Below, in pieces: positions 24,381-44,952 of a stretch of 60,993 nucleotides of DNA (its first letter is position 1; the number at the start of each line of letters is the position of its first letter). The translations under genes were made by a program, and so were the position numbers. The notes under the pieces were generated by a model. It did not search any database, was not told the DNA's origin, and saw only the letters and a program-made list of their open reading frames with translations. This DNA is from Candidatus Omnitrophota bacterium. GTDB lineage: Bacteria > Omnitrophota > Gorgyraeia > B26-G9. Where the stretch lies: the NCBI GenBank assembly GCA_016213925.1, contig JACQZH010000012.1, positions 1 to 60,993 of the forward strand, written 5' to 3'.

Positions 24381-25445
24381 ATGACAGCGGAAATAGCAAA
24401 ATTATTACACATATTGATCGAGCGGAATGCTTCTGATCTGCATTTAGGAGCGGGGTCTCCTGCTTATCTGCGTATTGATGAGAAGATTATCCCTGTAAAT
24501 GATAAAATTTTATCTTCTGCTGACGTTCAGGAATTAATTTTTAGTATTTTATCTCCGGAAGACGTAAAACGTTTTAAGTCGGAAAAAGAACTTGACATGT
24601 CTTTTGAAATTGACGGGTTGAGCCGGTTTCGCGTTAATGTTTTTTTTCAAAGGGGGCATGTGGGGGCGGCTTTACGCGTGATACCTTTTAAAATTCTTTC
24701 TTTTGCTGAATGCGGCTTGCCGGTTAAAATCGTTACGGATCTTTCCACTAAACCTAAAGGGCTGGTACTGGTAACCGGAGCTACGGGGTCCGGCAAATCA
24801 ACAACGCTTGCTTCTATCATCGACCATATAAATGAGGAAAGGCCGTGCCATATTATTACCGTTGAGGATCCGATTGAATTTGTGCATAAAAATAAGCAGG
24901 CAGTTATTGACCAAAGAGAAGTTGGACAGGATACGAAAAGTTTTGCCGCGGCTTTAAAGCATGTTTTGCGTCAGGACCCGGATGTTATTCTAGTCGGAGA
25001 AATGCGGGATTTGGAAACTATCGAGGCGGCATTAACAATAGCGGAAACCGGCCATTTGGTTTTCGCGACACTGCATACTTCTGATGCTGTGCAGACTATA
25101 AACAGAATCATAGATGTTTTTCCTTCTCATCAGCAGCAGCAAGTGCGTACGCAGTTATCATTTGTATTGCAGGGGATACTTTCTCAGCAATTGATACCAA
25201 AAGTTGGCGGCACAGGACGTGTATTAGCGTGTGAAGTTATGCTGGGAACTCCTGCGGTTAAGAGTATGGTAAGAGAGCAAAAAGTTCATCAGATCTATTC
25301 TATAATTCAAACCTCTCAAAAAGAGGGGATGCGGACGATGAATCAATCTATCTATAACTTATATTCGGAAAAAATAGTCAGTTACGAAAGTGCTATTGCC
25401 CGCTCGACTGATCCGGAAGATTTGATAAGGTTGTTTAAGAGGTAA
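24381..25445 (+). CDS. pilT: Type IV pilus retraction ATPase PilT (paralogue 2)
   Basis: 354 aa. Walker A GATGSGKST, LRQDPDVILVGEMRD and GHLVFATLHT. Confidence 0.9.
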   Translation: MTAEIAKLLHILIERNASDLHLGAGSPAYLRIDEKIIPVNDKILSSADVQELIFSILSPEDVKRFKSEKELDMSFEIDGLSRFRVNVFFQRGHVGAALRVIPFKILSFAECGLPVKIVTDLSTKPKGLVLVTGATGSGKSTTLASIIDHINEERPCHIITVEDPIEFVHKNKQAVIDQREVGQDTKSFAAALKHVLRQDPDVILVGEMRDLETIEAALTIAETGHLVFATLHTSDAVQTINRIIDVFPSHQQQQVRTQLSFVLQGILSQQLIPKVGGTGRVLACEVMLGTPAVKSMVREQKVHQIYSIIQTSQKEGMRTMNQSIYNLYSEKIVSYESAIARSTDPEDLIRLFKR

Positions 25446-26087: not shown

Positions 26088-27803
26088 GTGATGGTTCAAA
26101 GTATAAAAGAAAAAATTCTTGAAGTTTTAACAAGGTCAAACTTTTTAACTAAAGAGCAGTTGGATGAAGCTGTCGCAGCGCAGAAAAAAACAGGCAGGCA
26201 ATTGAGTGAAGTGCTGACAACAATGGGCTATATGAGTCAAAAGGATCTTGTAATTGTTCTTAGTCAAAGCCTGAATATCCCTCCTATCAATCTTAAAAAA
26301 GTTAAAATTGATTCTAGTGTTATCGGAATTATTCCGCGGGAGATGGCGGAGAAGTATCAGGCTATAGCAGTTTCGAAAATAGGAAAAATTGTGACGGTTG
26401 CGATGGTGGATCCATTGAACGTGCTTGCGATTGATGAACTGAAAGTTTTGACTAATTATGAAATTAAAATTGTTATCGCAATGCCTGAAGAATTAAAAGC
26501 AGCAATAAATACCTTTTACAGCGAATCAGCTAATGAACAGATAAAAGGGTTTATAGACAATGTTAAAGAAATGGATTTGGAACTGATTGAGGAAAAAATA
26601 GATGCCGAAGTTACGGTTAACACGCAAAAGCTGCTTCGCGATATTGAGGATGCTCCTGTAGTTAAAGTTACGAATATGATATTGACTGAGGCAATAAAAC
26701 ATAAGGCAAGCGATGTGCTTATCGAACCTCAAGAGAAGGGATTGCGCTTGCGGTACCGTTTGGATGGAATTTTGCATGAATTTCCCGGGCCGCCAAAATC
26801 AATGCATGAGGCAATAGTTTCCCGAATTAAAGTTATGGCTGTATTGAATATTGCTGAACACCGTTTGCCTCAAGACGGACGTTTTAAGATAAAAGTTAAT
26901 GAACGCGAAGTTGATTTTCGTGTTTCAATAATGCCTTCAAGTCACGGGGAAAAAGTGGCGCTGCGGGTACTAGATAAGTCAGTAGTAGTTTTAGACATTG
27001 ACCGGATGGGGTTTGAAGCTGATCCGCTGAAAAAAATAAAAGAGTTGGCAATGGAGCCGCATGGGATGATGCTTATTTGCGGGCCTACCGGCAGCGGGAA
27101 GTCGACTACCTTGTATAGTATTTTGAAATATATTGACGATCCGGAGAAGAACCTATGTTCAGCAGAAGACCCTGTCGAATATCAGTTAGAAGGCATTAAT
27201 CAAGTGAACGTTAATCCTGATGTCGGGCTTACTTTTGCTGCTGCTTTGCGTTCTTTTTTACGGCAGGACCCTGATGTGATTATGGTCGGGGAAATTCGCG
27301 ATGTGGAAACTTTGGATATCGGAATAAAAGCTGCGCTTACCGGGCATTTGGTATTAAGTACGCTACATACAACCGAGGCAGCTGGAGCGATAACAAGAAT
27401 GGTTAATATGGGGATCGAACCTTTTTTGATAACCTCTTCGTGTATTTTAGTATGCGCGCAGCGGTTAATCCGCCGGATATGCGAAAAGTGTAAAATATCT
27501 TATCCGATCTCTGAACAAACTAGGGATAAATTTAAAATTCCGGATAAATTCACTGAATTATATAAAGGCAAAGGATGCGAAAAATGCGATAATACCGGAT
27601 ATGCTGGCAGGGTCGGCCTTTGCGAGGTTTTAGTTTTAACTCCGGATATCAGGGACTTGATTATGGCAAAAGCCCAAGAGAATGTTATTAAGGCTAAGGC
27701 TCGCGAGGAAGGTATGGCAACGTTACGGGAAAATGGAGTAACAAAAGCTTTAAAAGGTATTACAACTTTAGAAGAAGTTACCAGATTAACGATTTCTGAC
27801 TAA
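26088..27803 (+). CDS. pilB: Type IV pilus extension ATPase PilB/GspE family (paralogue 1)
   Basis: MshEN-like N-terminus, T2SSE_N, Walker A GPTGSGKST, LRQDPDVIMVGEIRD, GHLVLSTLHT, and a tetracysteine motif CEKC...CEKC. GTG 26088 or ATG 26091. Confidence 0.9.
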   Translation: MMVQSIKEKILEVLTRSNFLTKEQLDEAVAAQKKTGRQLSEVLTTMGYMSQKDLVIVLSQSLNIPPINLKKVKIDSSVIGIIPREMAEKYQAIAVSKIGKIVTVAMVDPLNVLAIDELKVLTNYEIKIVIAMPEELKAAINTFYSESANEQIKGFIDNVKEMDLELIEEKIDAEVTVNTQKLLRDIEDAPVVKVTNMILTEAIKHKASDVLIEPQEKGLRLRYRLDGILHEFPGPPKSMHEAIVSRIKVMAVLNIAEHRLPQDGRFKIKVNEREVDFRVSIMPSSHGEKVALRVLDKSVVVLDIDRMGFEADPLKKIKELAMEPHGMMLICGPTGSGKSTTLYSILKYIDDPEKNLCSAEDPVEYQLEGINQVNVNPDVGLTFAAALRSFLRQDPDVIMVGEIRDVETLDIGIKAALTGHLVLSTLHTTEAAGAITRMVNMGIEPFLITSSCILVCAQRLIRRICEKCKISYPISEQTRDKFKIPDKFTELYKGKGCEKCDNTGYAGRVGLCEVLVLTPDIRDLIMAKAQENVIKAKAREEGMATLRENGVTKALKGITTLEEVTRLTISD

Positions 27804-27948
27804 AAGAGGTTCAGCCAGTCCTGTAGAGTTCTGGGCGGGCATGATTGAGCCGTTTGGTCGGAAAAAGAGAAAGATGCTACGGTTTTATCATAAGAAATTC
27901 CTTTGAAATTTTCAGGGATAAGGTTTCGCAATCTGGTCAGTGGGGGCT

Positions 27949-29667
27949 ATGCGTACTACAAAAAAACGTTTAAACGAACTGTTACTTGATTATAATTTAC
28001 TAAGCGAAAAGGATGTTATCCGGGCTTTAGAAATACAGCGTAAGCGCGGCGGACAGCTTGCTAGTATTTTAGTTGAAGAAGGTTTTGTCAAGGAAGATGA
28101 TATTGTAAGCTGTTTTTGCCGTTTTTTGGAGATTCCTGCATTACGGCTTTCAAAATTTAAAGCGGCTGAGCAAATTATTAAAATAATTCCTGAACATGTA
28201 GCAAGGCATTACAGGTTAATTTGTATTTCTCAGATAGCGAACATGCTGACGGTGGCAATGAATGACCCGCTGAATGTATTGGCAATTGATGATATCAGGG
28301 CATTGACGGGATATGACGTTATCCCTGTGGTTTGTCCTTTAAGTGAGATTACTCTGGCCGTGGATAGGTTTTACCATCATAAAGAAGAGGTAAAGACGCA
28401 GGAATCTTTCGATGAATTGGTTAAGGAAATCAACGAAGAAGATGTTGAAGTTATCAAGACTCAGGAACAGATTGATATCGGTGATGTAATACGTTCCAGT
28501 TCTGAGGCTCCGATTGTGAAAATGATTGATGCATTGATTGCAGAGTCTTTGATTAAGCGCGCTTCTGATATTCACATTGAGCCTTATGAAAAAGATATCA
28601 GAGTGCGTTACCGCATTGACGGCGCTTTAACAGAAGCGGTTAGGTTGCCGAAAAGAGTTCAGAATGCCGTTGCCGCCCGCTTAAAGATTATGTCAAATAT
28701 GGATATTACTCAGCGGCTTATTCCGCAGGATGGAAGATTTAGAGTTAAGCTGCAGGAGAAAGAGGTTGATTTTCGTGTTTCCGTGTTACCGCTTATTTTC
28801 GGAGAAAAAGTTGTTATGAGAGCTTTGGATAAGGCTAATCTAAGCATCGGGCTTGAGGCATTAGGATTTCTGCCGCAGGCAATGGATGCATTCCAGCATG
28901 CGGTTACAAGGCCCTATGGGATGATCCTGGTTACCGGGCCTACGGGTAGCGGTAAATCCACTACATTATATTCTGTTTTAAATAAACTAAATGTTCCGGA
29001 AAAAAATATAATAACTATTGAAGACCCTGTCGAATATCAGGTAGAAGGAATTACCCAGGTGCAGGTAAAACCGGATATCGGGCTTACTTTTTCTCAAGGC
29101 CTAAGATCGGTTCTAAGGCAAAATCCCGATATCTTGATGGTTGGCGAAATTAGAGATTTTGAAACTGGCGATATTGCTATAAAAGCCGCTTTAACAGGAG
29201 CGCTATTGCTTAGTACTCTGCATACAAATGACGCGCCTGGGGCAGTGACCCGTCTGATGGATATGGGTGTTGAGCCGTTTTTGATAGCAAGCAGTGTTGT
29301 CGCGGTAGCTGCGCAGCGTTTAGCCAGAAAGATTTGCTCACATTGCAAGGAAGCTTATAAAATCCCACAGTCTGTTTTGGATAGGCTTGATTTAAATATT
29401 GAAGCGCAAAAAGTAACTGTTTATAAAGGTAAAGGGTGCGAGAAATGCGGGGGCAGCGGATACCGCGGCCGTTTCGCGATTCTAGAGATAATGCTTGTTA
29501 ATGATAATGTGCGGGAGATGATTATGAACCGCAGTTCCAGTGATGAAATAAAACGTTATGCCCGTAAAGAGATGAAGATGCTAACATTAAGAGATACAGG
29601 CGTGCTAAAGTTTCTCTCCGGAGATACTACGCTCGAAGAGGTTTTGCGTGTTACATCAAAAGAATAA
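27949..29667 (+). CDS. pilB: Type IV pilus extension ATPase PilB/GspE family (paralogue 2)
   Basis: N-terminal RLNELLLDYNLLSEKDVIRALEIQ-RKRGG-QLASILVEEGFV.. (MshEN motif with the Arg retained). Walker A GPTGSGKST and CSHC...CEKC. ATG 27949; an in-frame GTG lies at 27940. Confidence 0.9.
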   Translation: MRTTKKRLNELLLDYNLLSEKDVIRALEIQRKRGGQLASILVEEGFVKEDDIVSCFCRFLEIPALRLSKFKAAEQIIKIIPEHVARHYRLICISQIANMLTVAMNDPLNVLAIDDIRALTGYDVIPVVCPLSEITLAVDRFYHHKEEVKTQESFDELVKEINEEDVEVIKTQEQIDIGDVIRSSSEAPIVKMIDALIAESLIKRASDIHIEPYEKDIRVRYRIDGALTEAVRLPKRVQNAVAARLKIMSNMDITQRLIPQDGRFRVKLQEKEVDFRVSVLPLIFGEKVVMRALDKANLSIGLEALGFLPQAMDAFQHAVTRPYGMILVTGPTGSGKSTTLYSVLNKLNVPEKNIITIEDPVEYQVEGITQVQVKPDIGLTFSQGLRSVLRQNPDILMVGEIRDFETGDIAIKAALTGALLLSTLHTNDAPGAVTRLMDMGVEPFLIASSVVAVAAQRLARKICSHCKEAYKIPQSVLDRLDLNIEAQKVTVYKGKGCEKCGGSGYRGRFAILEIMLVNDNVREMIMNRSSSDEIKRYARKEMKMLTLRDTGVLKFLSGDTTLEEVLRVTSKE

Positions 29668-29786: not shown

Positions 29787-30989
29787 ATGGCTTTATTTAA
29801 ATATGTTGCTAAGGATGAAGAAGGTAATGCGGTTAATGATGTCATTGAAGCTAAAGACGAAATAGTTGCTTTAGATATGCTTCGGGTAAAAAACCTGATT
29901 ATTATTTCTATCAATGAGGTAAAACAGCAAAAGGGTGCGGTGTCCTCTAGTAAAAAAATAAAATCGGACGAACTGGTAATTTTTTCCCGTCAGTTGGCGA
30001 CAATGGTTAATGCCGGTATACCGCTTGTTCAGAGCCTGGATATCTTGAGCGAGCAGATGGAAAGCATGGTCTTTCGCCAAATGATTACTGCTGTCAGGCA
30101 GGATGTTGAGGCCGGCGCCAGCTTATCAGCAGCCCTGGAGAAGCATCCAAAGGTTTTTGGAGTGCTTTATACAAATATGGTTAAAGCCGGAGAAACAAGC
30201 GGTATGCTTGATGATATTCTAGACCGTTTGGCCGGATATTTGGAAAAAAGCAATCAATTGCAGCGTAAGGTTAAGTCGGCAATGGTGTATCCTGCTGTTG
30301 TTACAGTTATGGCTTTTGGAATAACGCTTGTGCTTTTACTTAAAGTTATTCCTACCTTTAAAGAGATCTTTGCTACTTTGGGTGGAACTTTACCTATGCC
30401 TACACAAATATTGATTTCTATATCTGACGGATTACGCCACTATTTTATGTTTGCGGTTATTGTTGTTGGTATTTTTTGTTTTTTAATGATGAAATTAGTT
30501 CAGACTCCAAAGGGAAGGCAGCAATTTGACCAGCTAAAGCTAAATGTGCCGGTATTTGGGCCATTGATAAAAAAAGTTGCTGTGGCTAGGTTTTCAAGGA
30601 CACTGTCAACATTAATCCGCAGTGGAGTGCCAATACTTGGAGCTTTAGAAATTGTTGGTAAGACTTCCGGGAATGTAATTATTGAAATGGCAGTAGATAA
30701 GGCCAGAGTTGGAATACGCGAAGGTGAAAGCATTGCCCAGCCTTTATCAAAAAGCAATGCTTTCCCTCCGATGGTAACTAGAATGATATCTGTGGGTGAA
30801 GAATCAGGAGAGCTGGAGAAGATGCTTACAAAGATTGCTGATTTTTACGAAGATCAGGTTGATGCGGCAGTAAGCGGTTTAACTAGCTTGATAGAACCGC
30901 TTATTATTGCGTTTTTAGGTATTGTAGTAGGCTCTATAGTAATAGCTATGTTTCTGCCGATATTTAAGATAACTGAACTTATCGGTTAA
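29787..30989 (+). CDS. pilC: Type IV pilus platform protein PilC (GspF family)
   Basis: 400 aa with two GspF repeats and three TM regions. RBS AAGGAGG. Confidence 0.9.
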   Translation: MALFKYVAKDEEGNAVNDVIEAKDEIVALDMLRVKNLIIISINEVKQQKGAVSSSKKIKSDELVIFSRQLATMVNAGIPLVQSLDILSEQMESMVFRQMITAVRQDVEAGASLSAALEKHPKVFGVLYTNMVKAGETSGMLDDILDRLAGYLEKSNQLQRKVKSAMVYPAVVTVMAFGITLVLLLKVIPTFKEIFATLGGTLPMPTQILISISDGLRHYFMFAVIVVGIFCFLMMKLVQTPKGRQQFDQLKLNVPVFGPLIKKVAVARFSRTLSTLIRSGVPILGALEIVGKTSGNVIIEMAVDKARVGIREGESIAQPLSKSNAFPPMVTRMISVGEESGELEKMLTKIADFYEDQVDAAVSGLTSLIEPLIIAFLGIVVGSIVIAMFLPIFKITELIG

Positions 30990-31038: not shown

Positions 31039-31067
31039 TTGACAAAGCCAGTTCGGTAAGATATACT
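31039..31067 (+). promoter_or_regulatory. Sigma-70-type promoter candidate driving the riboswitch leader
   Basis: TTGACA, 17-nt spacer, TATACT, about 40 nt upstream of the aptamer. Confidence 0.55.
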
Positions 31068-31105
31068 TATATTAGAGCTAATAAGCTTGGAAAACAGAAA
31101 AAAAA

Positions 31106-31203
31106 CCTTTTAACGATAAAGGCAAACCAGCTGAAAAGCGGGGACGCAAAGCCACGGGTCTAAAAGAATTCCTTAAAAGACGGCCGGGTTACCGAATTAA
31201 AGG
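31106..31203 (+). promoter_or_regulatory. c-di-GMP-I (GEMM-I) riboswitch aptamer
   Basis: AAAGGCAAACC-AGCU GAAA AGCG-GGGACGCAAAGCCACGGG...GACGGCCGGGUUACCGAA matches the conserved GEMM-I core: GCAAACC, a GNRA tetraloop hairpin, GGACGCAAAGCC and GCCGGGUUACC. An outer CCUUU/AAAGG pairing closes it. Confidence 0.85.
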
Positions 31204-31215
31204 AAATCTTATGAT

Positions 31216-31258
31216 AGCCGAGTTACCGAATTAAAAAAGGTAATTCGGCTTATTTTTT
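31216..31258 (+). terminator. Riboswitch expression-platform terminator
   Basis: 12-bp stem AGCCGAGUUACC / GGUAAUUCGGCU (one G-U pair), 11-nt loop, then UAUUUUUU. The 5' arm nearly duplicates the aptamer 3' strand. Confidence 0.75.
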
Positions 31259-31283
31259 AGTTGAGAATGGAGAAAAGAAATTT

Positions 31284-31871
31284 ATGGAATTTTTAGAAAA
31301 AATTAGTTATATTTTCAGCAAAGCTAAAATTGTTTTTGCTATGTTTTTATTTCCTAAAACAATGTTTTTAAAAAAAGTGCATTGTCCTGTTTATTGCTAT
31401 AGAATCCATGCAGTAAAGGTGAAGTCAGAAAAAGGTTTTACTTTGGTGGAGATACTTGTTTCCACGTTAATAATGGCGTTAGCTGTGGGTGCGGTTATGC
31501 AGGTATTGCATTCTGTAATTCAGCTTAACGAAACAAATAATAACATGACCCAATGCGTAAACGTTGCCCAGGGCTTGATGGATGAAATCCGAGGGGTAAT
31601 TTATGAGGATATTATTTCAAATTATAATGGTTATACGTTTACATTAAATGATTTGGATAGCCAGTCAATTCCTAATCAGGGGCTTGTTATTGCTAGTGAA
31701 ATTGAGCCAGGGTATCTAATGCGCGTAAAGATTGTGATTTGCTGGAAGCAGAAAAACAGGATAATCGGAGAAGCTATTCCTTCAGGCAATAGTATTACGC
31801 TGCAAGATCTGGATGCAAGCGGAGAAATTGATTCTCCTTGCAGTGTTGAAGCGGCGATTATTTATAAATAA
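31284..31871 (+). CDS. Prepilin-type minor pilin (GspI/PilV-like)
   Basis: Prepilin cleavage/methylation site KSEKG|FTLVEILVSTLIMALAV. The ATG at 31284 has a good RBS (GGAG) but gives an unusually long 47-aa leader. An in-frame GTG at 31419 would give a 5-aa leader. Confidence 0.7.
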   Translation: MEFLEKISYIFSKAKIVFAMFLFPKTMFLKKVHCPVYCYRIHAVKVKSEKGFTLVEILVSTLIMALAVGAVMQVLHSVIQLNETNNNMTQCVNVAQGLMDEIRGVIYEDIISNYNGYTFTLNDLDSQSIPNQGLVIASEIEPGYLMRVKIVICWKQKNRIIGEAIPSGNSITLQDLDASGEIDSPCSVEAAIIYK

Positions 31872-31889
31872 TTTTTAAGGGAAAAGAAT

Positions 31890-32534
31890 ATGTTAAAAGG
31901 GAAAAAGGGATATACGATTGTGGAATCACTTATTGCTATGGCAATATTCACATTGATAATCGGCACATTATTCACAATGCTTATTTCCCAGAATAATTTT
32001 TTTAGCCAGTCAAGGGCAAAAATGGATGTGAGCAGCGCTGCGCGTAAAGCAATGACAGTAATAATTAAAGAAATGCGGCTTTGTAAAGTTGAGTATGTCG
32101 AAGTCTATAATCTGCCGATTGATCAAGGAGGTGTTATAGACCATACTGACGCAACAAGTATTAAGTTTCAGGTGCCTGTAGACTGGGATGGTGACGGTGA
32201 TTTTTTTAATGAATACGGGATCATAGAATGGGGAGCTGAAGGCCAGGAAGATTACGCGCTGCAATACTACTGGGATAGCGCTAATGAGCGGATCATCCGC
32301 AGGGTTTGGGATTCGTCAGCAAACGAAGATTCCTTTACGGTTATTGCCGAAGATATTTTTGATTTTAAAATAAACGGCTTCAAATATAATTCTGCCTCAC
32401 AAAATGTTGAGCCGGATTCTAGCTGTGAGATTGTGGAAATAGAAATTACAGCGCGCAGGTCTCAAATTAGCGGAAGGTCTTTGGCTAATCCGCTTACTTA
32501 TACTTTAAGTAACCGGGTTGCTTGGCGAAATTAA
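31890..32534 (+). CDS. Prepilin-type minor pilin (PilW/GspJ-like)
   Basis: MLKGKKG|YTIVESLIAMAIFTLIIG N-terminal cleavage/methylation motif with Glu at +5. Confidence 0.75.
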   Translation: MLKGKKGYTIVESLIAMAIFTLIIGTLFTMLISQNNFFSQSRAKMDVSSAARKAMTVIIKEMRLCKVEYVEVYNLPIDQGGVIDHTDATSIKFQVPVDWDGDGDFFNEYGIIEWGAEGQEDYALQYYWDSANERIIRRVWDSSANEDSFTVIAEDIFDFKINGFKYNSASQNVEPDSSCEIVEIEITARRSQISGRSLANPLTYTLSNRVAWRN

Positions 32535-32563
32535 AGTTTTTTAAATAATAAAGGAGGATGGCA

Positions 32564-34360
32564 ATGAAGATATTGAAAAACCGCAAAGGCGCGATTCTGG
32601 TTGCCACGTATATGGTTTTATTTGTAATCATTGTAGTTGCTGCTGGTTTTTTTGCTATGGTTGTAAGTAATAATAAAAATATTACCCGCGAAAATGAGGG
32701 GACTAAGGCGTTAAACTTCGCGGAGATGGGCATAGCTTACGCTTATAATGAAGCGTATAATAGCGGCTGGGACTGGAACACTCATGAGTGGAATCAGGAG
32801 AAAACTGCGCTTTCGATTGCTCCGATAGTTTTAAAAGTCCGCGATGATTGTTCTTTTGACGGAAATGGTTTTTATGTCCATGATGGAGGAGAATTTATGG
32901 TCAAGGCATATCCTGACCCTGACCGTGACGAGGCTACGATTGTTTTGGCTATGGGCATAAGCGGTAATGAGCGCAGGGTGCTTAAATACTATTTGTCAAG
33001 AAGAGGTATTTATGATTTTTATATTTATACCCCATATAATCTTGACTTAAACCGGATGGGAGGTTTTCAGGCGCTTAACGGCGGCGGGATTCATGCTAAC
33101 GGCAATATTTATATGGATGATTATGTGAGATTGGAAAATGTTTCCGAGATTAGCACCGGTAATGACGGTTCAATATATTATACCTGGTCGCAGTATATAT
33201 CACCGCGCAGGTATGATGACGGATTAGGAAAAACAGGAGAACGGGTTAGGGATAGCAGGGCTCCGATTACCCGGTTAGATAATCTGGAAAATCTTTTTAT
33301 TGATTATAGCACTCTTCAGCCAGGGCCGTTTGGGTATTATGGTACGAATAACATTTGGTATTGGCGCGACTATGCTACACGGATTGTTGGAGCCAGTAAG
33401 AATGATTATCCGCCAAGGGACTTTTTAAAATCAGAGTTTCATTTTAGCGGAGATAACCAGACAGGTAATAATATAGCTCCGGGATCAAGCAGCAATGGTG
33501 CCATAAATGACAGTACTGGTCCTTTAAACCGGTATAACGCCTGGATAAAGCCTTATAAACAAGACGCTGAAGGGGAGCAAATTGCGACTACCTGGACTCA
33601 AATTCCGGCAGAGTTGGATCAGCAATGGTCATGGGATAAGTATGAGAGTACGAAAGATACCACTGAACAGGCAGTTCAGTTTTATACATATGATAATAAC
33701 GGCAACCGAATCAATGTTGAGAACACCAGGTGGTATAAGAATGGTAATAATGTGGAACTGCTTGATGAAGCGGATTTTATCGCTAATCCGAATAAATATC
33801 AGAATAAAGACATCAAATCATATTGGCAAATGTATACTTCCTCTGAATTTTGGCAGGGAGTCAGGGGTGATTCGAATTTTGTCAATCAACTTGACCCTGA
33901 AATATTAGATGGAAGTTACGGCGATGAGCGCATTAACAATAGCGACATTATACAAGTTAATCATACAAATTCCAAGGAACAGCCTAATGCCTGGCAGCAA
34001 TTTTTAGAGGAATCTGGGCTTGAAGGGATAGTACGCGATGCAAATACAGGAGGAGAAAATCTAGACCCGCCTGATTTTGAAGTGACTTATGCAAGGTTAG
34101 CGGAGAAAGACGGTTTGTATTTAAACCTAGACGAAGACTTTGACGGCGAATTTGATAATACTACGGAGTGGAATAATGAGCTGGAGAAAGGCATAGATAA
34201 CTGGGCGGATAAGCTAAATGACGGTGATCCCGAGAATGGAGTAGCTAAAAAGGTTAAATTTATCGATACCTTTACCGGACAATGGAAGATTATGCTTGAG
34301 AAAAAAAAAAAAAAAATGCAGGAACGTAATAAGTATCCGGCGAATGGTCTTCCGCGATAA
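32564..34360 (+). CDS. Large PilX-N-terminus-type pilus-associated protein (putative tip or adhesin component), N-terminal portion
   Basis: N-terminal KNRKGAILVATYMVLFVIIVVAAGFFAMVV resembles the PilX N-terminal domain, followed by about 560 aa rich in N/Y/W/D/G. Ends 44 nt after an A16 run. ATG 32564 has better RBS spacing than ATG 32558. Confidence 0.6.
   Translation: MKILKNRKGAILVATYMVLFVIIVVAAGFFAMVVSNNKNITRENEGTKALNFAEMGIAYAYNEAYNSGWDWNTHEWNQEKTALSIAPIVLKVRDDCSFDGNGFYVHDGGEFMVKAYPDPDRDEATIVLAMGISGNERRVLKYYLSRRGIYDFYIYTPYNLDLNRMGGFQALNGGGIHANGNIYMDDYVRLENVSEISTGNDGSIYYTWSQYISPRRYDDGLGKTGERVRDSRAPITRLDNLENLFIDYSTLQPGPFGYYGTNNIWYWRDYATRIVGASKNDYPPRDFLKSEFHFSGDNQTGNNIAPGSSSNGAINDSTGPLNRYNAWIKPYKQDAEGEQIATTWTQIPAELDQQWSWDKYESTKDTTEQAVQFYTYDNNGNRINVENTRWYKNGNNVELLDEADFIANPNKYQNKDIKSYWQMYTSSEFWQGVRGDSNFVNQLDPEILDGSYGDERINNSDIIQVNHTNSKEQPNAWQQFLEESGLEGIVRDANTGGENLDPPDFEVTYARLAEKDGLYLNLDEDFDGEFDNTTEWNNELEKGIDNWADKLNDGDPENGVAKKVKFIDTFTGQWKIMLEKKKKKMQERNKYPANGLPR
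34301..34316. repeat. A16 homopolymer inside the 3' end of the large pilus-protein ORF
   Basis: Counted directly: 16 consecutive A (encoding KKKKK) at 34301-34316. Confidence 0.95.
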
Positions 34361-34410
34361 TTTCCAAAAAACGTATTTATACTCTTTCCGAAGACTTTAA
34401 TGACCCGCAG

Positions 34411-35211
34411 GTGGTACCGGCAACTGAAAATTATCCTGATTATCCTAATATGTATGTAAAGGGATCCGGTAATCAATGGGATGAAGTTCCGCCGGGTACT
34501 CAAGGAGGATTTTGGGTTGATCGGGGCTATCTGGGCAGGTTGGGCCAAAATGACAGGTATCCTGATATACCTAACGGACAGCAGAATGCGCTAATTGCTA
34601 GAATTGACGAAAAGAATAGCTCATACCGTTCTGTTTTCAATGTGGATGATTCCTCCTATCCGGCTTCTCAAACCTATTCCTGGAGCTGGCCGGCTACTAA
34701 TGAAACTGTAACCAGCGGAGCAATGGCCAATAAAGTAAGATTGTCTAGTAAATCAGCATTGCCCGCTGCAGAACAAGTCCAAAAGTACAATTGTTTAATG
34801 GCAAGCTCTCGCCTTTTGGACGGAGATCATATGAACAGCGGTAGCGTACTGGAAAATTGGCATTACCATGAGGGCAATAATAGTATTACTAAAAACAGGG
34901 TTATGAAAGGCTCATATTTTGTGCTGGATAACGCGACAGATGGAGGGTTTAGCGCAGCTAATAATGAGTTTGTTGATTATATAAATAATCCGGGATTTTA
35001 TTATAGTAACCGCTTTAGAACGGTTAGCGGTAATAACTATTACGGTTCGACGTTTTTACATACTTATAGTAATACTGCCTCGCTTAAGGTGTCTTATGAC
35101 GAGAATTTTAAAACCAGGACGCGCGCTCCTTCAGATGTGTTTTTCGGAGGAGCAGAAGCATTATGGTCTGAAGAATCAGTAGATTACTTTTATAAATTAA
35201 CGGGATTTTAA
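34411..35211 (+). CDS. ORF without leader, signal peptide or RBS; probably the displaced C-terminal part of the preceding large pilus protein
   Basis: The frame is open from 34333, overlapping the upstream ORF end. Only a GTG start is available and there is no Shine-Dalgarno. It has the same N/Y/W/G/D-rich composition as 32564-34360. Confidence 0.4.
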   Translation: MVPATENYPDYPNMYVKGSGNQWDEVPPGTQGGFWVDRGYLGRLGQNDRYPDIPNGQQNALIARIDEKNSSYRSVFNVDDSSYPASQTYSWSWPATNETVTSGAMANKVRLSSKSALPAAEQVQKYNCLMASSRLLDGDHMNSGSVLENWHYHEGNNSITKNRVMKGSYFVLDNATDGGFSAANNEFVDYINNPGFYYSNRFRTVSGNNYYGSTFLHTYSNTASLKVSYDENFKTRTRAPSDVFFGGAEALWSEESVDYFYKLTGF

Positions 35212-35224
35212 AAAAGGAAAGAAT

Positions 35225-35629
35225 ATGGATAAAAGAGTAAAGATAACATTGATTGTGAGTGCATTGTTATTTATCTTGATTGTGGTATTAGGGCTGATGA
35301 ATGCTTTTTCTCCCGAACCGGACGCAGTAAAAGTTAAGAATACTAGAATCACGCAGGATAATACAGAGCAAACAGCTGGCCCGAAAGTTAAAGCCAAAGT
35401 TGAGATGAGAAATAACAGTTATTACTTTCCTAAGGAAAGGAAAATAGAAACTGTGAAGAAAAAACAGGTTAAGCTTTTAGATCCAAACGATACGCAGGCG
35501 CGATATGGTATAGAAGATGATGAGACGCATAACGCTGATTCGCTTGGCGGTATGGCGCTGGATGAAAATGATTCAATCCTGCATCAGGATGAATATAGTT
35601 TACAAAAAGAAGATGATATCCCTGAATAG
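35225..35629 (+). CDS. Small membrane-anchored hypothetical protein
   Basis: 134 aa with one N-terminal TM (ITLIVSALLFILIVVLGL) and a charged tail. RBS AAAGGAAAG. Confidence 0.45.
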   Translation: MDKRVKITLIVSALLFILIVVLGLMNAFSPEPDAVKVKNTRITQDNTEQTAGPKVKAKVEMRNNSYYFPKERKIETVKKKQVKLLDPNDTQARYGIEDDETHNADSLGGMALDENDSILHQDEYSLQKEDDIPE

Positions 35630-35674: not shown

Positions 35675-35712
35675 GAAAGCGGAAAAGTTTGACTTTTTCC
35701 GCTTTCTTTCTT
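35675..35712 (+). terminator. Rho-independent terminator (perfect 12-bp stem)
   Basis: GAAAGCGGAAAA / TTTTCCGCTTTC with an 8-nt loop, followed by TTTCTT. Lies 46 nt after the stop at 35629. Confidence 0.7.
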
Positions 35713-35717
35713 ATAAT
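35689..35717 (+). promoter_or_regulatory. Consensus-like sigma-70 promoter candidate embedded in the terminator, possibly giving a leaderless pilS mRNA
   Basis: TTGACT, 17-nt spacer, TATAAT. The -10 hexamer ends 7 nt before ATG 35725. Confidence 0.45.
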
Positions 35718-35724
35718 AGCCTCG

Positions 35725-36984
35725 ATGCTGACAAATAAAAAGCCATTATACGCTTTAATACTATTTCGTTTTGTTATTGCGACAGTTATGCTTATTGTTA
35801 ATACTGCTCTTTTTGGTTTAGCTAGGATGCCTGTATATTTTCTTATCGGCATAATTTATGTTTTGACAATAGTTTACTTATTGCTGATTTTAGCGAATGT
35901 CAGTAATAAAACTTTTTTATATATACAGATTATCCTGGATATTTTTATTGAAACATTACTGGTGATTTATACAGGAGGGATTGACTCTGTAGTAAGCTTG
36001 TTGTTTCCCTTATCAAGTATTGCCGCAAGTATTGTCATTTCGCCGGGCGCGGGAATAATCATGGCACTATTAGCGAGTATTTTTTATTCTGCGGTTGTTA
36101 GCCTTGATTTTTTCAACCTATTGTTTTTGCCAGGCCAAATAACTTCTGTTTTTGGTAAGCAGGGGGCGTATGTTTTTTCTTTGCTCTATTTTAAAGTAAC
36201 GGTTTTTTTTATTATCGGTTTTTTAAGCGCGTATATCGCGGATCAGCTGAAGAAAAAAGACAAAGCTGTAATTTTTCTTCAGGAACGCTTGCGCAGGGAA
36301 GATAGGCTTTCGGCAATCGGAAAATTAGCGGCAAGCGCGGCGCATGAAATAAGAAATCCGCTAGCTTCAATTTCCGGTTGCGTGGAATCATTAAAAAACA
36401 GCCTTAAGCTTGAGGAGAAGAATGAGAAATTATTTAACCTTGTAATTAAAGAAACCGGCAGGCTGAATAATATAATTAACGGCTTGCTTGAGTATGTCAA
36501 GCCGCGAAGGCTGCAGCTTGAAACAACAGATATTTCCGGGCTTTTGGACGAGGTTATTCTTCTGGTCAAAAACAGCCGAGATTTTAAAACAGAGGTAATC
36601 TTAAATAAAGATGAATCTTTTCCCTCGGCGAATATTAAATGCGATCCGCAGCAAATAAAACAGGTATTTTTTAATTTGCTCATAAATGCGGTTGAGGCTG
36701 TGAAAAAAAATGGTAAAATTCTGATTAAGGGCAGGCCGGTAAATCAGAATAGGGATTTTGAAATCGTGATTATTGATAACGGTATCGGTATAAGTGAGGA
36801 ATTGCTTGAATCTATCTTTGAGCCTTTTTCAAGCGGAAAAGAGAACGGCGTGGGATTGGGATTATCGATTGCTTCTGCTATAATTAATGAACATAGTGGA
36901 AAAATTACGGTAAAAAGTACGCAGGGTAAAGGCACTTCCTTTTATGTTTGCTTACCTTTTGAGTCGGAAGAAAGACGGAGATAA
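35725..36984 (+). CDS. pilS: Polytopic sensor histidine kinase, PilS-like by architecture and context
   Basis: About 6 TM segments, H-box AASAAHEIRNPLASISG, and an HATPase domain (GVGLGLSIASAII). Immediately upstream of a sigma-54 activator and the pilin genes. Confidence 0.75.
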   Translation: MLTNKKPLYALILFRFVIATVMLIVNTALFGLARMPVYFLIGIIYVLTIVYLLLILANVSNKTFLYIQIILDIFIETLLVIYTGGIDSVVSLLFPLSSIAASIVISPGAGIIMALLASIFYSAVVSLDFFNLLFLPGQITSVFGKQGAYVFSLLYFKVTVFFIIGFLSAYIADQLKKKDKAVIFLQERLRREDRLSAIGKLAASAAHEIRNPLASISGCVESLKNSLKLEEKNEKLFNLVIKETGRLNNIINGLLEYVKPRRLQLETTDISGLLDEVILLVKNSRDFKTEVILNKDESFPSANIKCDPQQIKQVFFNLLINAVEAVKKNGKILIKGRPVNQNRDFEIVIIDNGIGISEELLESIFEPFSSGKENGVGLGLSIASAIINEHSGKITVKSTQGKGTSFYVCLPFESEERRR

Positions 36985-36989
36985 TTTTT

Positions 36990-38342
36990 ATGCAAGGAAG
37001 AATACTTTTGGTTGATGATGAGCAGGATTTACTGGAATGGCTAAGCGTGGTTCTTGAGAATGAAGGTTATGCTGTGCGAGTTACTACTTCGGCGCAGGAT
37101 GCTTTGAAATTTTTTAAGCAAGAACAATTTGATATGGTAATTTCCGATATACGCATGCCTGATGTCAGCGGTATTGAGCTTTTAAAACTGCTTAAAAAAC
37201 ATGATCCGGAAGTGATAGTTTTAATGATTACCGCCTATGCTTCAGTTGAGACAGCGGTGAATGCTTTGCGTTTTGGCGCGTATGATTATTTATTCAAACC
37301 TTTTAAGCTCGATGAAATTAAACTGATAATTAAAAAAGCTTTCAGCCAGAAAAGGATTTTTGCTGATGACAAAGAGCTTGAGAAAAAATTAAAGGAGCGT
37401 TACCGCTTCGCGAATATAATCGGAAAAAGCAAGTCAATGCAGAAAATATTCGATCTGGTGGATAAAGTGGCAAAGACAAATACTACGGTATTGATACACG
37501 GGGAAAGCGGAACAGGAAAAGAGCTTATCGCCAAAGCCATCCATTATAACAGCCTTAGGGCGAGTAAACCGTTTGTTTCTATTGACTGCGGGGCTTTGCC
37601 GGATGAGCTTTTGGAAAGTGAATTGTTCGGGCATGTAAAGGGTTCTTTTACCGGAGCAATCTCCACAAAACAGGGCCTTTTTGAAGTCGCTGACGGCGGA
37701 ACTTTATTTCTTGATGAAATAGGAGAAACATCACAGGCTATGCAGGCAAAACTTTTGCGAACGCTTCAAGAGCGGGAAGTGCGCTCAGTAGGCGCAACTA
37801 AAACAGTCAAAGTTGATGTACGTGTTGTTGCCGCCACTAACCGGAATTTAGACGAAGAAGTAAGACATGAAAATTTTCGCAAGGATCTTTTCTACAGGAT
37901 AAGCGTAATTACCTTAAACCTGCCGAAGCTTTCTGCGCGCAAAGAAGATATTCCGCTGCTGGTAAATCATTTTCTTAAAAAATACCAGCATACTGCCAAA
38001 CAGTCAAAAAAGATATCGAATGAATGCCTTGACTTATTTCTTGAATATCCCTGGCCTGGAAATGTGCGTGAACTTGAAAATGCTATTGAAAGCGCGGTTG
38101 CTTTGGCTGAACAGGAAATTATTCTCCCAAAGGATTTGCCTTTGCGCATAACAAACGAGGATGCGGCTGAAGAAAAAAACCATGATGCAGAGGATTCCTT
38201 GAAAGGTAAGGTTGAAATGTTTGAAAAGGAGTTAATTGCAAAAACTATGACTGAAGTTGGCGGAAATAAAAATCTGGTCGCTAAAATATTAAAAATGACC
38301 AGAAGGAATCTTGATTATAAGATAAAACGTTATGAGCTCTAA
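36990..38342 (+). CDS. pilR: Sigma-54-dependent response regulator (NtrC family), PilR-like by context
   Basis: Receiver (VISDIRMPDVSG), AAA+ domain (GESGTGKE, GSFTGA loop, ELENAIE) and a C-terminal Fis-type HTH. Confidence 0.9.
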   Translation: MQGRILLVDDEQDLLEWLSVVLENEGYAVRVTTSAQDALKFFKQEQFDMVISDIRMPDVSGIELLKLLKKHDPEVIVLMITAYASVETAVNALRFGAYDYLFKPFKLDEIKLIIKKAFSQKRIFADDKELEKKLKERYRFANIIGKSKSMQKIFDLVDKVAKTNTTVLIHGESGTGKELIAKAIHYNSLRASKPFVSIDCGALPDELLESELFGHVKGSFTGAISTKQGLFEVADGGTLFLDEIGETSQAMQAKLLRTLQEREVRSVGATKTVKVDVRVVAATNRNLDEEVRHENFRKDLFYRISVITLNLPKLSARKEDIPLLVNHFLKKYQHTAKQSKKISNECLDLFLEYPWPGNVRELENAIESAVALAEQEIILPKDLPLRITNEDAAEEKNHDAEDSLKGKVEMFEKELIAKTMTEVGGNKNLVAKILKMTRRNLDYKIKRYEL

Positions 38343-38423: not shown

Positions 38424-38503
38424 CCTAAACCCTAAACCCTAAACCCTAAACCCTAAACCCTAAACCCTAAACCCTAAACCCTAAACCCTAAACCCTAAAC
38501 CCT
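38424..38503. repeat. Perfect heptanucleotide tandem array (CCTAAAC = CCCTAAA register), about 11.4 units; the complement is TTTAGGG
   Basis: 80 nt counted directly with no interruptions. Lies between the pilR stop and the pilA sigma-54 promoter. Confidence 0.95.
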
Positions 38504-38665: not shown

Positions 38666-38681
38666 TGGCATGCGGTTTGCT
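38666..38681 (+). promoter_or_regulatory. Sigma-54 (-24/-12) promoter of the pilin genes
   Basis: TGGCATGCGGTTTGCT fits the TGGCAC-N5-TTGCW consensus with one mismatch. Lies 60 nt upstream of the pilA ATG and downstream of a sigma-54 activator gene. Confidence 0.75.
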
Positions 38682-38740
38682 ATATTTGTTAGTGGACGAA
38701 ATTATTTTTAACTGTAACATTGTGGAAAGGGAGGTGTTTT

Positions 38741-39220
38741 ATGGGGCGTAAGGGGTTTACGTTGGTTGAAATTATGATCGTTGTCGCTATTATTGCTCTT
38801 TTGGCTGCGATAGCGATTCCTAACTTGCTTAGAGCAAGGTTGGGAGCTAATGAAACAGCGTCAATAGGCGCGTTGAAGACAATTTCTACGGCAATGGAAA
38901 ACTGGAGATCAAGACATAATTCTGATTATGCGGGTGCTACATTGGCAACTTTAGGTTCAGCGACTCCGCCGTATATTGATCAAGTATTAGGTTCTGCGGC
39001 CACTTCAACGAAAAACGGTTATCAGTTTACGATTACGCTTGATGGTGCTGTTGGCGGCAGGGTTATCGGGTATAACTGTACTGGCTCGCCTGTAGCATAT
39101 CAGCAGACGGGTGAACGTTGTTTTATTGTTGATGAGACCGGAGTTATTTGGGGTGTTGATCTTGGCGGCGTAGGGCCTGCAACTGATGCTAATAAAATTG
39201 CGGCTAACGTGCTTGAATAA
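38741..39220 (+). CDS. pilA: Type IV major pilin (paralogue 1)
   Basis: MGRKG|FTLVEIMIVVAIIALLAAIAIPNLLRARL class III signal peptide. RBS GGGAGG. C-terminal TGERCFIVDETG motif shared with paralogues 2 and 3. Confidence 0.9.
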   Translation: MGRKGFTLVEIMIVVAIIALLAAIAIPNLLRARLGANETASIGALKTISTAMENWRSRHNSDYAGATLATLGSATPPYIDQVLGSAATSTKNGYQFTITLDGAVGGRVIGYNCTGSPVAYQQTGERCFIVDETGVIWGVDLGGVGPATDANKIAANVLE

Positions 39221-39236
39221 TCAATTGGTATACGCA

Positions 39237-39275
39237 AAAGTGGCGAAACAGTTATATGTTTCGCCACTTTTATGT
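39237..39275 (+). terminator. Rho-independent terminator after pilA-1
   Basis: 13-bp stem AAAGTGGCGAAAC / GTTTCGCCACTTT with an 8-nt loop and a T-rich tail. Confidence 0.8.
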
Positions 39276-39305
39276 TTATAAATCTAAAATCAGGAAAGGC
39301 ATGTT

Positions 39306-39773
39306 ATGGATAGAAATGGGTTTTCCATGATTGAGGTTCTTGTTGCGATAGCGATTATGGGAGTACTTTTTGCAATAGCTATTCCTAATCTGGTGTGTGC
39401 CAGGATAAGCGCCTATGAGACAGTTGCCTTGACATCAATGAAAACAATCTCAAAGGCAGTGCAAAGTTGGTCTGTGCAAAAGGGAAGTTTTAAAGGAGTT
39501 AGTTTAGACAGCTTGGCGAATTCTAATCCGCCGTTTATTGATAGTTCATTAAAAACCGGGTATAAGTCCGGATATAATTTTGAGATTACGCTTGGAGTCC
39601 CGATTGCCAACGGCAGGATTTACAAGTATAATATTAATGCTTTTCCGAATAGGTACCGAAGCTCAGGAGAAAGGTCATGCCTTATTGATGAAAACGGAAA
39701 TGTTTACGCGAAGGATAATGACGGAATAAAGCTGGCAGAAGCGGATAAAATTCCGCAAAATATTTTAAACTGA
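39306..39773 (+). CDS. Type IV pilin (paralogue 2, more divergent)
   Basis: MDRNG|FSMIEVLVAIAIMGVLFAIAIPNL and C-terminal SGERSCLIDENG. Confidence 0.85.
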   Translation: MDRNGFSMIEVLVAIAIMGVLFAIAIPNLVCARISAYETVALTSMKTISKAVQSWSVQKGSFKGVSLDSLANSNPPFIDSSLKTGYKSGYNFEITLGVPIANGRIYKYNINAFPNRYRSSGERSCLIDENGNVYAKDNDGIKLAEADKIPQNILN

Positions 39774-39837
39774 TATTATCCCGGACAGGCAATCATAAAA
39801 ATCTTATTCAATTAGGAAATTTAAGAGAGGAGCGGTT

Positions 39838-40299
39838 ATGAAGAAAGGCGGATTTACTCTTGTTGAGATAATGGTTGTTGTAGCGATTATTGCGATTCTG
39901 TCAGTGATATCAATCCCTAATTTATTGCGTTCAAGGCTTACGGCAAATGAATCTGCCGCAGAATCAAATCTTAAGACAATTGCTTTAGCCTGTGAAAGTT
40001 TCCGCTCGGTTCAGCCTACACCTGCTTACCCTGCGGTTGCCGGGGATTTGACTGGCGCTACACCGGCATATGTAAACGCGGTGATTTTTGATGCAGCAGG
40101 CAGGCAGGGATATGTTTTTACTTATACTCAGATTTCAAATAGCGAATTTGTGGCTTGCGGGACGCCTGTTTCTTATCAGGCAACAGGAGAAAGGACGTTT
40201 GCTGTTGATGAATCAGGAGTGTTAAGGTTTCAGGATTTTGGAGCAAGTCAGAATGTTACGACAAAAATTGTTTACAACGCAATGACTGTTGTAGATTGA
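39838..40299 (+). CDS. Type IV pilin (paralogue 3)
   Basis: MKKGG|FTLVEIMVVVAIIAILSVISIPNLLRSRL, C-terminal TGERTFAVDESG, RBS GAGAGGAG. Confidence 0.9.
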   Translation: MKKGGFTLVEIMVVVAIIAILSVISIPNLLRSRLTANESAAESNLKTIALACESFRSVQPTPAYPAVAGDLTGATPAYVNAVIFDAAGRQGYVFTYTQISNSEFVACGTPVSYQATGERTFAVDESGVLRFQDFGASQNVTTKIVYNAMTVVD

Positions 40300-42187: not shown

Positions 42188-42219
42188 GAAAGTCAATCGG
42201 GCAAAAAAGAAGGTATCTA

Positions 42220-43914: not shown

Positions 43915-43924
43915 AGGCTTTTTT

Positions 43925-44518: not shown

Positions 44519-44519
44519 A

Positions 44520-44939
44520 ATGAAGTTCAGGCGCGGAATTTTGATTGCAGTTTTAATCGTATTAATACAGATTTGCTCAGTTTTAGCGCAAAATAGTTTA
44601 GATGAGGAAGAATCAATCAGTTTTGAAGGGTTTGTTTATGAATCAGAAGCGAACCGGGATCCTTTCTTTTCTCTGCTTGATAATTCTGGAGTGTTTATGG
44701 ATGAACAAGGACCGAAAAAAGAAGAAATATTGATGGAGCGTGTGCAAAAAGTGAGTGTAAATGGCGTTATCTGGGACCAGGATATGCCGTTAGTTATGAT
44801 CAATAAAAAGATTTACAAAAAAGGGGATATGATTCAGGAAGGGTTGCTGGTAAAGGAGATTAGAGCGGAAAGCGTAACGCTAGGTTATGAAGATCTTACG
44901 CATGTAATTTCCCTTGTAAAAAGGAAAAATCTAGATTAG
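44520..44939 (+). CDS. pilP: PilP-like periplasmic pilus assembly protein
   Basis: Signal peptide MKFRRGILIAVLIVLIQICSVLA, a C-terminal beta-domain (VNGVIWDQDMPLVMINKKIYKKGDMI..LVKEIRAESVTL), and position between pilO and pilQ. Confidence 0.55.
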   Translation: MKFRRGILIAVLIVLIQICSVLAQNSLDEEESISFEGFVYESEANRDPFFSLLDNSGVFMDEQGPKKEEILMERVQKVSVNGVIWDQDMPLVMINKKIYKKGDMIQEGLLVKEIRAESVTLGYEDLTHVISLVKRKNLD

Positions 44940-44952
44940 CAAGGAGGAATAG

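Follow-up and report, generated by a model that had tools for sequence, protein, structure and literature searches.

A c-di-GMP-I riboswitch with a duplicated aptamer 3′ half and two predicted exclusive folds upstream of a minor-pilin operon in Omnitrophota

How might a leader RNA that carries the 3′ half of its aptamer twice decide whether the genes behind it are transcribed? The question is raised by a 60,993-nt stretch of DNA from Candidatus Omnitrophota bacterium (JACQZH010000012.1, assembly GCA_016213925.1; hereafter the window, meaning the whole stretch analysed), in which a riboswitch for c-di-GMP (cyclic diguanosine monophosphate) occupies the 294-nt gap between the stop codon of the type IV pilus gene pilC (30989) and the ATG of the first gene of a minor-pilin operon (31284). 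From the promoter to the end of this operon, all features described below lie on the forward (+) strand. The original prediction had placed a promoter, a GEMM-I core, a terminator and a ribosome-binding site with ATG in this gap, in that order, and we found all four at those positions. It had further described the 5′ arm of the terminator as a near copy of the aptamer 3′ strand; the repeat is real and longer than proposed, as it spans the whole half made of the P3 and P1 3′ strands. Our structural predictions point to two exclusive folds, of which one would most likely halt transcription of the pilin operon and the other permit it, and we lean, with modest confidence, towards an OFF switch with its own promoter, in which c-di-GMP would trap the first fold (fold A) and transcription would stop.

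We began from the identity of the aptamer. An Rfam scan gave a single match in the whole 61-kb window, at 31112–31197, to RF03167 (c-di-GMP-I-GGC; 71.8 bits against a gathering cut-off of 59, E = 4.7e-15, model positions 1–80 of 80). As the scan displays the best family per clan only, the RF01051 score of the window is not displayed; for clan CL00126, one further family lies above its own cut-off at this site and two lie at E ≤ 10. In the fold that follows the Rfam alignment (fold A), P2 covers 31122–31147 with a GAAA tetraloop at 31133–36, and the P3 5′ strand (segment c, AGCCACGGGUC, 31150–31160) pairs with 31179–31190. The P1 5′ strand and its extension (CCUUUUAACGA, 31106–31116) can pair with the tail of the first 3′ half (copy 1, 31193–31203) or with that of the second (copy 2); the core P1 pairs 31112–31197, 31114–31194 and 31115–31193 come from the Rfam alignment, and the extension CCUUU:AAAGG was read off the sequence. 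The aptamer is missing from the minimum-energy fold of 31075–31262, which holds only the terminator and local hairpins; we did not count this against the Rfam match, because a tertiary-structured aptamer is expected to be missed by plain minimum-energy folding. A second GGCAAACC at 60954 was rejected as a chance match, since it lies within a coding region and is accompanied by no other motif.

The binding site places the RNA more precisely than the model score does. In the Vc2 aptamer of V. cholerae, c-di-GMP is contacted by G20, A47 and C92, with a Hoogsteen contact for G20 and a Watson–Crick contact for C92 (PMC4744006, PMC5888326). The window has the canonical base at each equivalent position, namely G31121 before the GC of P2, A31148 right after the closing GC, and C31192, which the Rfam alignment places in UUACCG and which forms with A31191 the dinucleotide preceding the P1 3′ strand. 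The RF03167 consensus has G both at the A47 position and at position 91, where the window has A. Set side by side, GACGCGAAgCc of the consensus corresponds to GACGCAAAGCC in the window, and the two differ at exactly two contact places (GCGAAgCc versus GCAAAGCC, and UGCcg versus UACCG), so that the window lacks the binding site of the GGC variant. The name GGC reportedly refers to positions 20, 47 and 92 (Weinberg et al. 2017, PNAS 114:E2077); otherwise the variant is read from the model consensus. Because that consensus departs from the window at contact positions, the RNA is, judged by its binding-site sequence, a canonical member of the parent c-di-GMP-I class and not a GGC variant, and by the same comparison RF03167 scores best on the scaffold and not on the binding site. 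A at position 20, which we take to be the signature of the GEMM-Ib class selective for 3′,3′-cyclic GMP–AMP (3′,3′-cGAMP) and which that class reportedly carries according to Kellenberger 2015 and Nelson 2015, is replaced in the window by G31121, unlike in GEMM-Ib.

Why RF01051, the family named in the original prediction, is not the top model may be explained by P3. The RF01051 consensus for this helix (‘CUAAgg…ccuAuGac’) expects an AuG half that fold A of the window does not have, its receptor 3′ half reading AAAAGAC against ‘AuGac’. The sequence also has GAAA (31133–36) for the P2 tetraloop, UCUAA (31159–63) as a candidate P3 receptor, and C31145 and G31182/83 as candidate equivalents of the inter-helical C44–G83 pair. 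The prediction of a GEMM-I/c-di-GMP-I aptamer holds, on the strength of the CL00126 match, the canonical G/A/C contacts and 13 orthologous elements that score as RF01051; of the family assignment the clan stands, and for the window itself RF03167 takes the place of RF01051 as top model.

The 3′ half of this aptamer occurs twice. Copy 1 (GACGGCCGGGUUACCGAAUUAAAGG, 31179–31203) comprises the P3 3′ strand, the A91 and C92 equivalents and the P1 3′ strand; copy 2, the mimic (GAUAGCCGAGUUACCGAAUUAAAAAAGG, 31213–31240), contains 31216–31227, which double as the terminator 5′ arm. A repeat finder reports a direct repeat of 19 nt with one mismatch (31183–31201 versus 31217–31235), and gapped local alignment extends it to approximately 31167–31201 versus 31205–31235, with a score of 36 compared with a maximum of 28 in 1000 shuffles. 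Copy 2 reaches beyond what a terminator would use: 5′ of the terminator stem it continues with GAY, which corresponds to the GAC/GAU opposite GUC atop P3, can itself pair with that GUC and has no terminator role, and its tail, which falls within the loop of the terminator, resembles the P1 3′ strand. Between the copies runs a linker (d′, AAGGAAAUCUU, 31200–31210) that overlaps the P1 extension, contains a Shine-Dalgarno-like AAGGA and is complementary to the apical region of P3 (segment d, AAGAAUUCCUU, 31164–31174).

The pairing of d with d′ was assessed with an alignment-free duplex test. In the window the duplex reaches −10.0 kcal/mol, which none of 300 shuffles equalled, and 15 of the 16 orthologous elements described below give −6.4 to −12.5 kcal/mol (z −1.9 to −4.9). 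For the four most diverged elements (the window, L214, L010 and L006) the cognate linker outbinds all 15 foreign linkers; overall, cognate and non-cognate linkers differ weakly in this test (−9.4 versus −7.9 kcal/mol). We used it in place of pair counts from MAFFT columns, as the column count for d:d′ (68% of cells paired) was discarded on account of a one-base register shift between the window and the majority. For the P1 5′ strand, the duplex energy with either the copy-1 or the copy-2 tail is not clearly better than that of shuffles matched for composition, as these strands are rich in A/U and low in complexity. Pairing of leader AGCUUGG (31084–90) with copy 2, seen in minimum-energy folds of the window, has no counterpart in the orthologue leaders and was dismissed as chance.

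On either side of the aptamer lie the parts that would make it a switch. A sigma-70-type promoter at 31039–31067 (TTGACA 31039–44, a 17-nt spacer, TATACT 31062–67) has 11 of 12 matches and is the top site of the region in a promoter scan; transcription is expected to start near 31074–31076. The intrinsic terminator (31216–31258) consists of a 12-bp stem (31216–31227/31239–31250) with an 11-nt loop and, directly 3′ of the stem, the U tract UAUUUUUU (31251–31258). It thus has the form of a G+C-containing hairpin with a U tract directly behind it, lies on the coding strand and precedes a gene, and its stem is part of the minimum-free-energy fold; a simple terminator scan shows only an inner alternative 8-bp hairpin (31226–31248). 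GGAG at 31268–71 and the ATG at 31284 form the start region of the first pilin-like gene (31268–31286).

The arrangement is shared by relatives. From genome contigs and contigs encoding close PilC relatives we collected 16 complete orthologous elements (the window, L001, L002, L004–L008, L010, L011, L201, L203, L204, L208, L214 and L215); the window PilC is 75–84% identical to PilC of Candidatus Omnitrophota metagenome-assembled genomes. All 16 keep the promoter (a TTGACA…TATACT pair is retained 5′ of the elements), the aptamer, a second copy of the 3′ half, a complementary 3′ arm and the U tract. Copy 2 follows the pattern (A/G)UG-GAY-NG-CCGAG-YU-AC-CGA…AAAAGG. The terminator is likewise kept in all 16, with 90.9% of alignment cells paired and two pairs changed on both sides, and its 3′ arm covaries with copy 2 (C–G to U–A in the window and L011). 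At the syntenic site, 13 orthologous elements score as RF01051 (35.5–50.3 bits, cut-off 35). For comparison we sampled about 120 other GEMM-I loci, fetched with the P3 5′-strand pattern GCAAAGCNNCGGGTCTAA; tried as a clade-specific metagenome marker, this pattern proved general to GEMM-I and was therefore used for background. The duplicated-3′-half layout is present in 16 of 16 elements of the Omnitrophota clade versus 3 of about 120 background loci (L081, L084 and L161).

These segments can be combined into two mutually exclusive structures. In fold A, the P1 and P3 5′ strands pair with copy 1 and copy 2 is free for the terminator. In the predicted fold B, the P3 5′ strand pairs with copy 2 (31213–24), stacked on the d:d′ helix, and copy 1 lies in the apical loop. 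For 13 sequences we folded the stretch that starts with the P3 5′ strand and ends with copy 2; in all 13 these two segments pair with each other in the minimum-energy structure, and in 11 the full long hairpin appears. Alignment pair counts gave 99.4% of cells paired for P3 with copy 1 and 91.9% for the P3 5′ strand with copy 2, where 12 of 16 elements have a C·A mismatch and the other 4 a U–A pair; copy 1 with the terminator 3′ arm reached 91.8%, with more wobbles than the terminator. The proposal that both copies compete for the same partners is thereby borne out, copy 2 being found in every orthologue and the alternative hairpin being predicted. In constrained folds that end before the terminator 3′ arm, the energy gap between A and B is 0.2 kcal/mol in the window and ranges from −6.1 to +5.3 kcal/mol over the 16 orthologues. 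Once this arm is included, fold A plus terminator is always lower than fold B, by 0.9–15.6 kcal/mol. Computationally, the leader thus has what defines a strand-exchange platform: two exclusive structures, one of them with the aptamer, that share a switching sequence.

We infer from these predictions that fold B forms in the cell, and likewise infer the sequence of steps and the regulatory sign. During transcription the P1 5′ strand (31106–31116) and the P3 5′ strand (31150–31160) would first pair with copy 1, giving fold A. Copy 2, left free, would pair with 31239–50 into the 12-bp terminator, and RNA polymerase would stop at 31251–31258. c-di-GMP bound at G31121, A31148 and C31192 would lock fold A, so that the terminator forms. 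Without ligand, d′ (31200–10) would take the exposed P3 loop d (31164–74) as a toehold, copy 2 would then displace copy 1 from the P3 5′ strand and loop it out, and the resulting fold B would sequester the terminator 5′ arm long enough for polymerase to pass.

Several results incline us to this sign. Transcription completes fold A 34 nt ahead of fold B, and by sequence fold A is canonical, so ligand should trap it and the terminator should follow. Direct-path barriers from fold B to fold A plus terminator are 8–14 kcal/mol; these values are upper bounds that do not represent pseudoknotted branch migration and do not settle the kinetics. By these barriers together with nearest-neighbour energies, unliganded fold B, once formed, may already resist the terminator, in which case ligand would gain little by binding fold B and would act mainly by trapping fold A. 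The OFF sign is further favoured because fold B has its conserved C·A mismatch while P3 of fold A is fully paired, and because in L002 the copy 1 tail follows a changed P1 5′ strand and the copy 2 tail does not.

A number of points weigh against this scheme. Fold B is a prediction, and the helix between the P3 5′ strand and copy 2 shows no true covariation in the orthologue alignment; because the P3 5′ strand is nearly invariant, fold B is supported by conservation and complementarity and not by covariation, and the pairing could be a mere consequence of the duplication. To pass from fold A to fold B along the direct path, the window RNA faces a barrier of 14 kcal/mol (again an upper bound), and by this estimate conversion is slow unless a pseudoknot toehold helps. 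The terminator 3′ arm can also pair with the looped-out copy 1, which might give termination even in fold B. As to the sign, fold B keeps every ligand-contact nucleotide, its AUGAY is nearer to ‘AuGac’ of the RF01051 consensus than copy 1 is, and an AUG precedes copy 2 without exception, whereas the corresponding bases ahead of copy 1 vary. In L081, an unrelated metagenome example of the layout (1631–1750), the RF01051 match (69.2 bits) takes copy 2 as the aptamer 3′ strand and leaves copy 1 as 36 inserted nucleotides within P3, so a second copy can be the canonical aptamer strand. Because of the contact nucleotides, the AUGAY fit and the L081 alignment, fold B may be a ligand-binding form in its own right, and the sign would then be reversed. 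Finally, in C. difficile type IV pili are under positive control by c-di-GMP (PMC6366702), and the GGDEF cyclase and MshEN-containing PilB proteins encoded in the window's pilus cluster would fit activation better than repression. The original prediction left the sign open, and rightly so.

The opposite sign thus has to be considered in full. The sensing aptamer would then be the 5′ half with copy 2 (fold B), with d:d′ as an extension of P3 and copy 1 in its loop; c-di-GMP would lock copy 2 in the aptamer and prevent termination, and without ligand the terminator 3′ arm would invade and copy 1 would re-capture the freed 5′ half (fold A), making termination strongly downhill. We regard this ON switch as a serious rival, though a less likely one. 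It has the classical layout in which the aptamer 3′ strand is the terminator 5′ arm, it retains the G20, A47 and C92 equivalents, and its 3′ strand, AUGAUAGCCGAGUUACCGAA, agrees with ‘AuGacAGCcggGcUgCCgaa’ of the RF01051 consensus, copy 2 being the copy that Rfam aligns in L081; GCCGAGCU.CCGA is, moreover, the sole 3′ strand of some other GEMM-I aptamers (L156, L189 and L194), and the AUG preceding copy 2 never varies. Before the terminator 3′ arm is made, 5 of the 16 orthologues have fold B as their minimum-energy fold, and where the P3 strand is AGCU it lies about 6 kcal/mol below fold A; in most orthologues fold A plus terminator lies 8–15 kcal/mol below fold B, a gap of the order of the binding energy of c-di-GMP. 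Activation of pili by c-di-GMP in C. difficile and the GGDEF gene in the cluster also agree with it. However, fold A is by sequence at least an equal aptamer, with a perfect P3, and Rfam aligns copy 1 in the window and 14 orthologues; an ON switch requires that fold A cannot bind ligand, of which the sequence gives no hint, and as fold A is made first, ligand should trap it and give termination. The mismatch conserved in fold B of 12 of 16 elements and the barrier estimates, by which unliganded fold B already resists the terminator, also speak against it, and almost no time separates completion of the copy-2 P1 strand (31227–31240) from the emergence of the terminator 3′ arm (31239–50). Both folds might also bind ligand with opposite outputs, the arrival time of the ligand setting the outcome in a time-gated or band-pass response, which we think unlikely. 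If this dual-aptamer reading were true, the switch would have arisen by tandem duplication of the aptamer 3′ half, and the design would have been kept across the Omnitrophota clade and a few other lineages.

There are two further explanations. The repeat could be a historical duplication that supplied a terminator arm, without a useful fold B, the leader then being a simple attenuator or using some other competition, such as P1 against local hairpins. The lack of double-sided covariation between the P3 5′ strand and copy 2, the P1 5′ strand and copy-2 tail barely beating shuffles, the terminator that is always present in the full-length minimum-energy fold, and the terminator that L213 has kept without an aptamer would all agree with this. 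A terminator alone does not, however, explain why GAY, the P1-3′-like sequence in its loop and, in 15 of 16 elements, a linker with complementarity to the loop of P3 are conserved, and an aptamer beside a constitutive terminator would lack an output; we consider this explanation improbable. We give very little credence to ribosome-dependent attenuation, in which the linker would be the Shine-Dalgarno sequence of a seven-codon mini-open reading frame lying over copy 2 (31211–31234; AUG AUA GCC GAG UUA CCG AAU UAA, MIAELPN*), the riboswitch would hide or expose it through the P1 extension or d:d′, and a loaded ribosome would cover copy 2 and block the terminator. AAGGA lies 6 nt upstream of the AUG in the window, and AAGGA-like purines 6–8 nt upstream in about 14 of 16 elements; the AUG never changes, all 16 orthologues retain M-x-AELP-x and 14 of them end at the same stop codon, and the changes seen in the Leu and Ile codons are synonymous. 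Yet these codons are the mimic sequence and so are explained by RNA constraints, L084 and L161 share the architecture but lack an AUG before copy 2, and the terminator 3′ arm follows about 30 nt past the AUG, too near for ribosome loading unless polymerase pauses. The reading frame may be a by-product of RNA mimicry or a leader peptide.

Compared with known systems, the aptamer class and the pilus target are already familiar, and the expression platform is an unusual variant. The window shares with Vc2 (RF01051) a three-helix aptamer, the GAAA tetraloop of P2, UCUAA in P3 and the G20, A47 and C92 equivalents; unlike Vc2 and RF01051 it has a short distal part of P3, RF03167 as top model, an Omnitrophota host and, in 12 of 16 orthologues, an insertion in the P2 bulge. 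With RF03167 it shares a similar scaffold, a P3 without the AuG receptor half and the top score of 71.8 bits, and differs in having A, not G, at the A47 position and position 91. In C. difficile the c-di-GMP-II riboswitch Cdi-2-4 upstream of pilA1 acts through an intrinsic terminator and is experimentally ON (PMC6366702). Like Cdi-2-4, the window combines a c-di-GMP riboswitch with type IV pilus genes and an intrinsic terminator, but its aptamer is of class I and not class II, its target is a minor-pilin operon and not the major pilin, and its predicted sign is OFF. The 3′,3′-cGAMP riboswitch (GEMM-Ib) of Geobacter metallireducens pilM is cited as a cotranscriptional switch in PMC10907184; it resembles the window in placing a GEMM-I fold before a type IV pilus assembly gene. 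Strand-exchange platforms such as those of pbuE, ZTP and xpt are defined by exclusive helices, an invader identical to the displaced strand, a toehold and ligand-blocked branch migration (PMC10907184), all of which have a predicted counterpart here. Such platforms usually have a single switching strand, in most cases the P1 3′ strand, that changes between two partners to form local hairpins. In the window, by contrast, the whole aptamer 3′ half is present twice and the 5′ half picks a copy; the invader would take the 5′ strands over a long range and loop out the incumbent, and as copy 2 is shared with the terminator 3′ arm the exchange would be a two-step relay. A narrow literature search found no description of a duplicated-3′-half layout.

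The orthologues also vary among themselves. In 12 of the 16 elements (L001, L002, L004–L008, L010, L201, L203, L204 and L208) a structured insertion of about 60–80 nt sits in the three-base GAC bulge of P2, between GGGGC/GGGAC and GCAAAGCC, and lowers the RF01051 scores to 35–50 bits; the window, L011, L214 and L215 have none, and these last three score as RF03167, like the window. A at the G20 equivalent was seen in the first copy of L008 (5340–5356), in L201/L202 (about 2850 in L201) and in L208/L209 (about 2850), in the contexts …AAUAGCAAACC and …CAAAAGCAAACC; L008 has a second riboswitch copy of G20 type at 9032–9196, 3.7 kb downstream. In L005 and L212 the riboswitch does not follow pilC. 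L005 carries it about 3.7 kb downstream, before another pilin gene, and the L212 locus ends before the equivalent point. In L009, L012, L210 and L211, pilC is followed directly by pilS, with neither riboswitch nor minor-pilin operon. L213 has lost the promoter and aptamer after pilC but retains the linker and copy 2 as well as the 3′ arm with the U tract (2770–2840). Despite this aptamer loss, its terminator stem is kept by a compensatory change from G–C to A–U (CCGAG to CCAAG with GGTCGG to GGTTGG).

The riboswitch directly follows the PilC gene (29787–30989) within a larger pilus cluster that begins with PilT (24381–25445) and two PilB genes (26088–29667), both with an MshEN N-terminal domain. 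The controlled operon (31284–35629) comprises two prepilin-type genes (31284–31871 and 31890–32534) and three genes without a family match (32558–34360, 34411–35211 and 35225–35629). Its first two products are minor-pilin-like, as originally proposed, by PilV/ComGE/GspJ-type matches that are weak and below threshold. In the first open reading frame the prepilin cleavage motif KG|FTLVE lies at residues 51/52, about 45 residues later than in orthologues (leaders of 5–9 aa), which makes its leader unusually long; the start context AAUUUAUG of the window ATG is also found in L004 and L007 and is thus orthologous. Either the leader really is this long or the true start lies downstream and was not recognised. 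Behind the operon follow PilS and PilR (35689–38342), three major-type pilin genes (38720–40299), a GGDEF diguanylate cyclase gene (40904–42187), and PilM, PilO and secretin genes (42163–46701). A sigma-54-like site (TGGCATGCGGTTTGCT, 38666–38681) lies about 60 nt 5′ of the first major pilin, and together with PilS/PilR upstream of the three major-type pilins it agrees with the proposal that pilA is driven by sigma-54 and PilR. Between the pilR stop (38342) and this site run 11.4 perfect tandem copies of the heptamer CCTAAAC (38424–38503); read on the other strand, the unit TTTAGGG resembles that of plant telomeres. With the GGDEF cyclase and the MshEN domains of both PilB proteins, presumably c-di-GMP binders as in MshE, the cluster may receive several c-di-GMP inputs.

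The bare identification is ordinary, since c-di-GMP and cGAMP riboswitches before pilus genes are known in Clostridioides and Geobacter. The platform is of wider interest as a compact natural case of strand exchange, with a whole 3′ half duplicated, near-equal predicted fold energies and an identifiable toehold, in what is the least understood group of riboswitch mechanisms (PMC10907184). With 16 natural variants, some with A at position 20, some with large P2 insertions and one without an aptamer, this 190-nt element would make a convenient model. For the Omnitrophota, uncultured nanobacteria whose pili are reportedly thought to be important for contact with hosts (Seymour et al. 2023), it ties c-di-GMP to the minor-pilin, or priming, operon of a type IV pilus.

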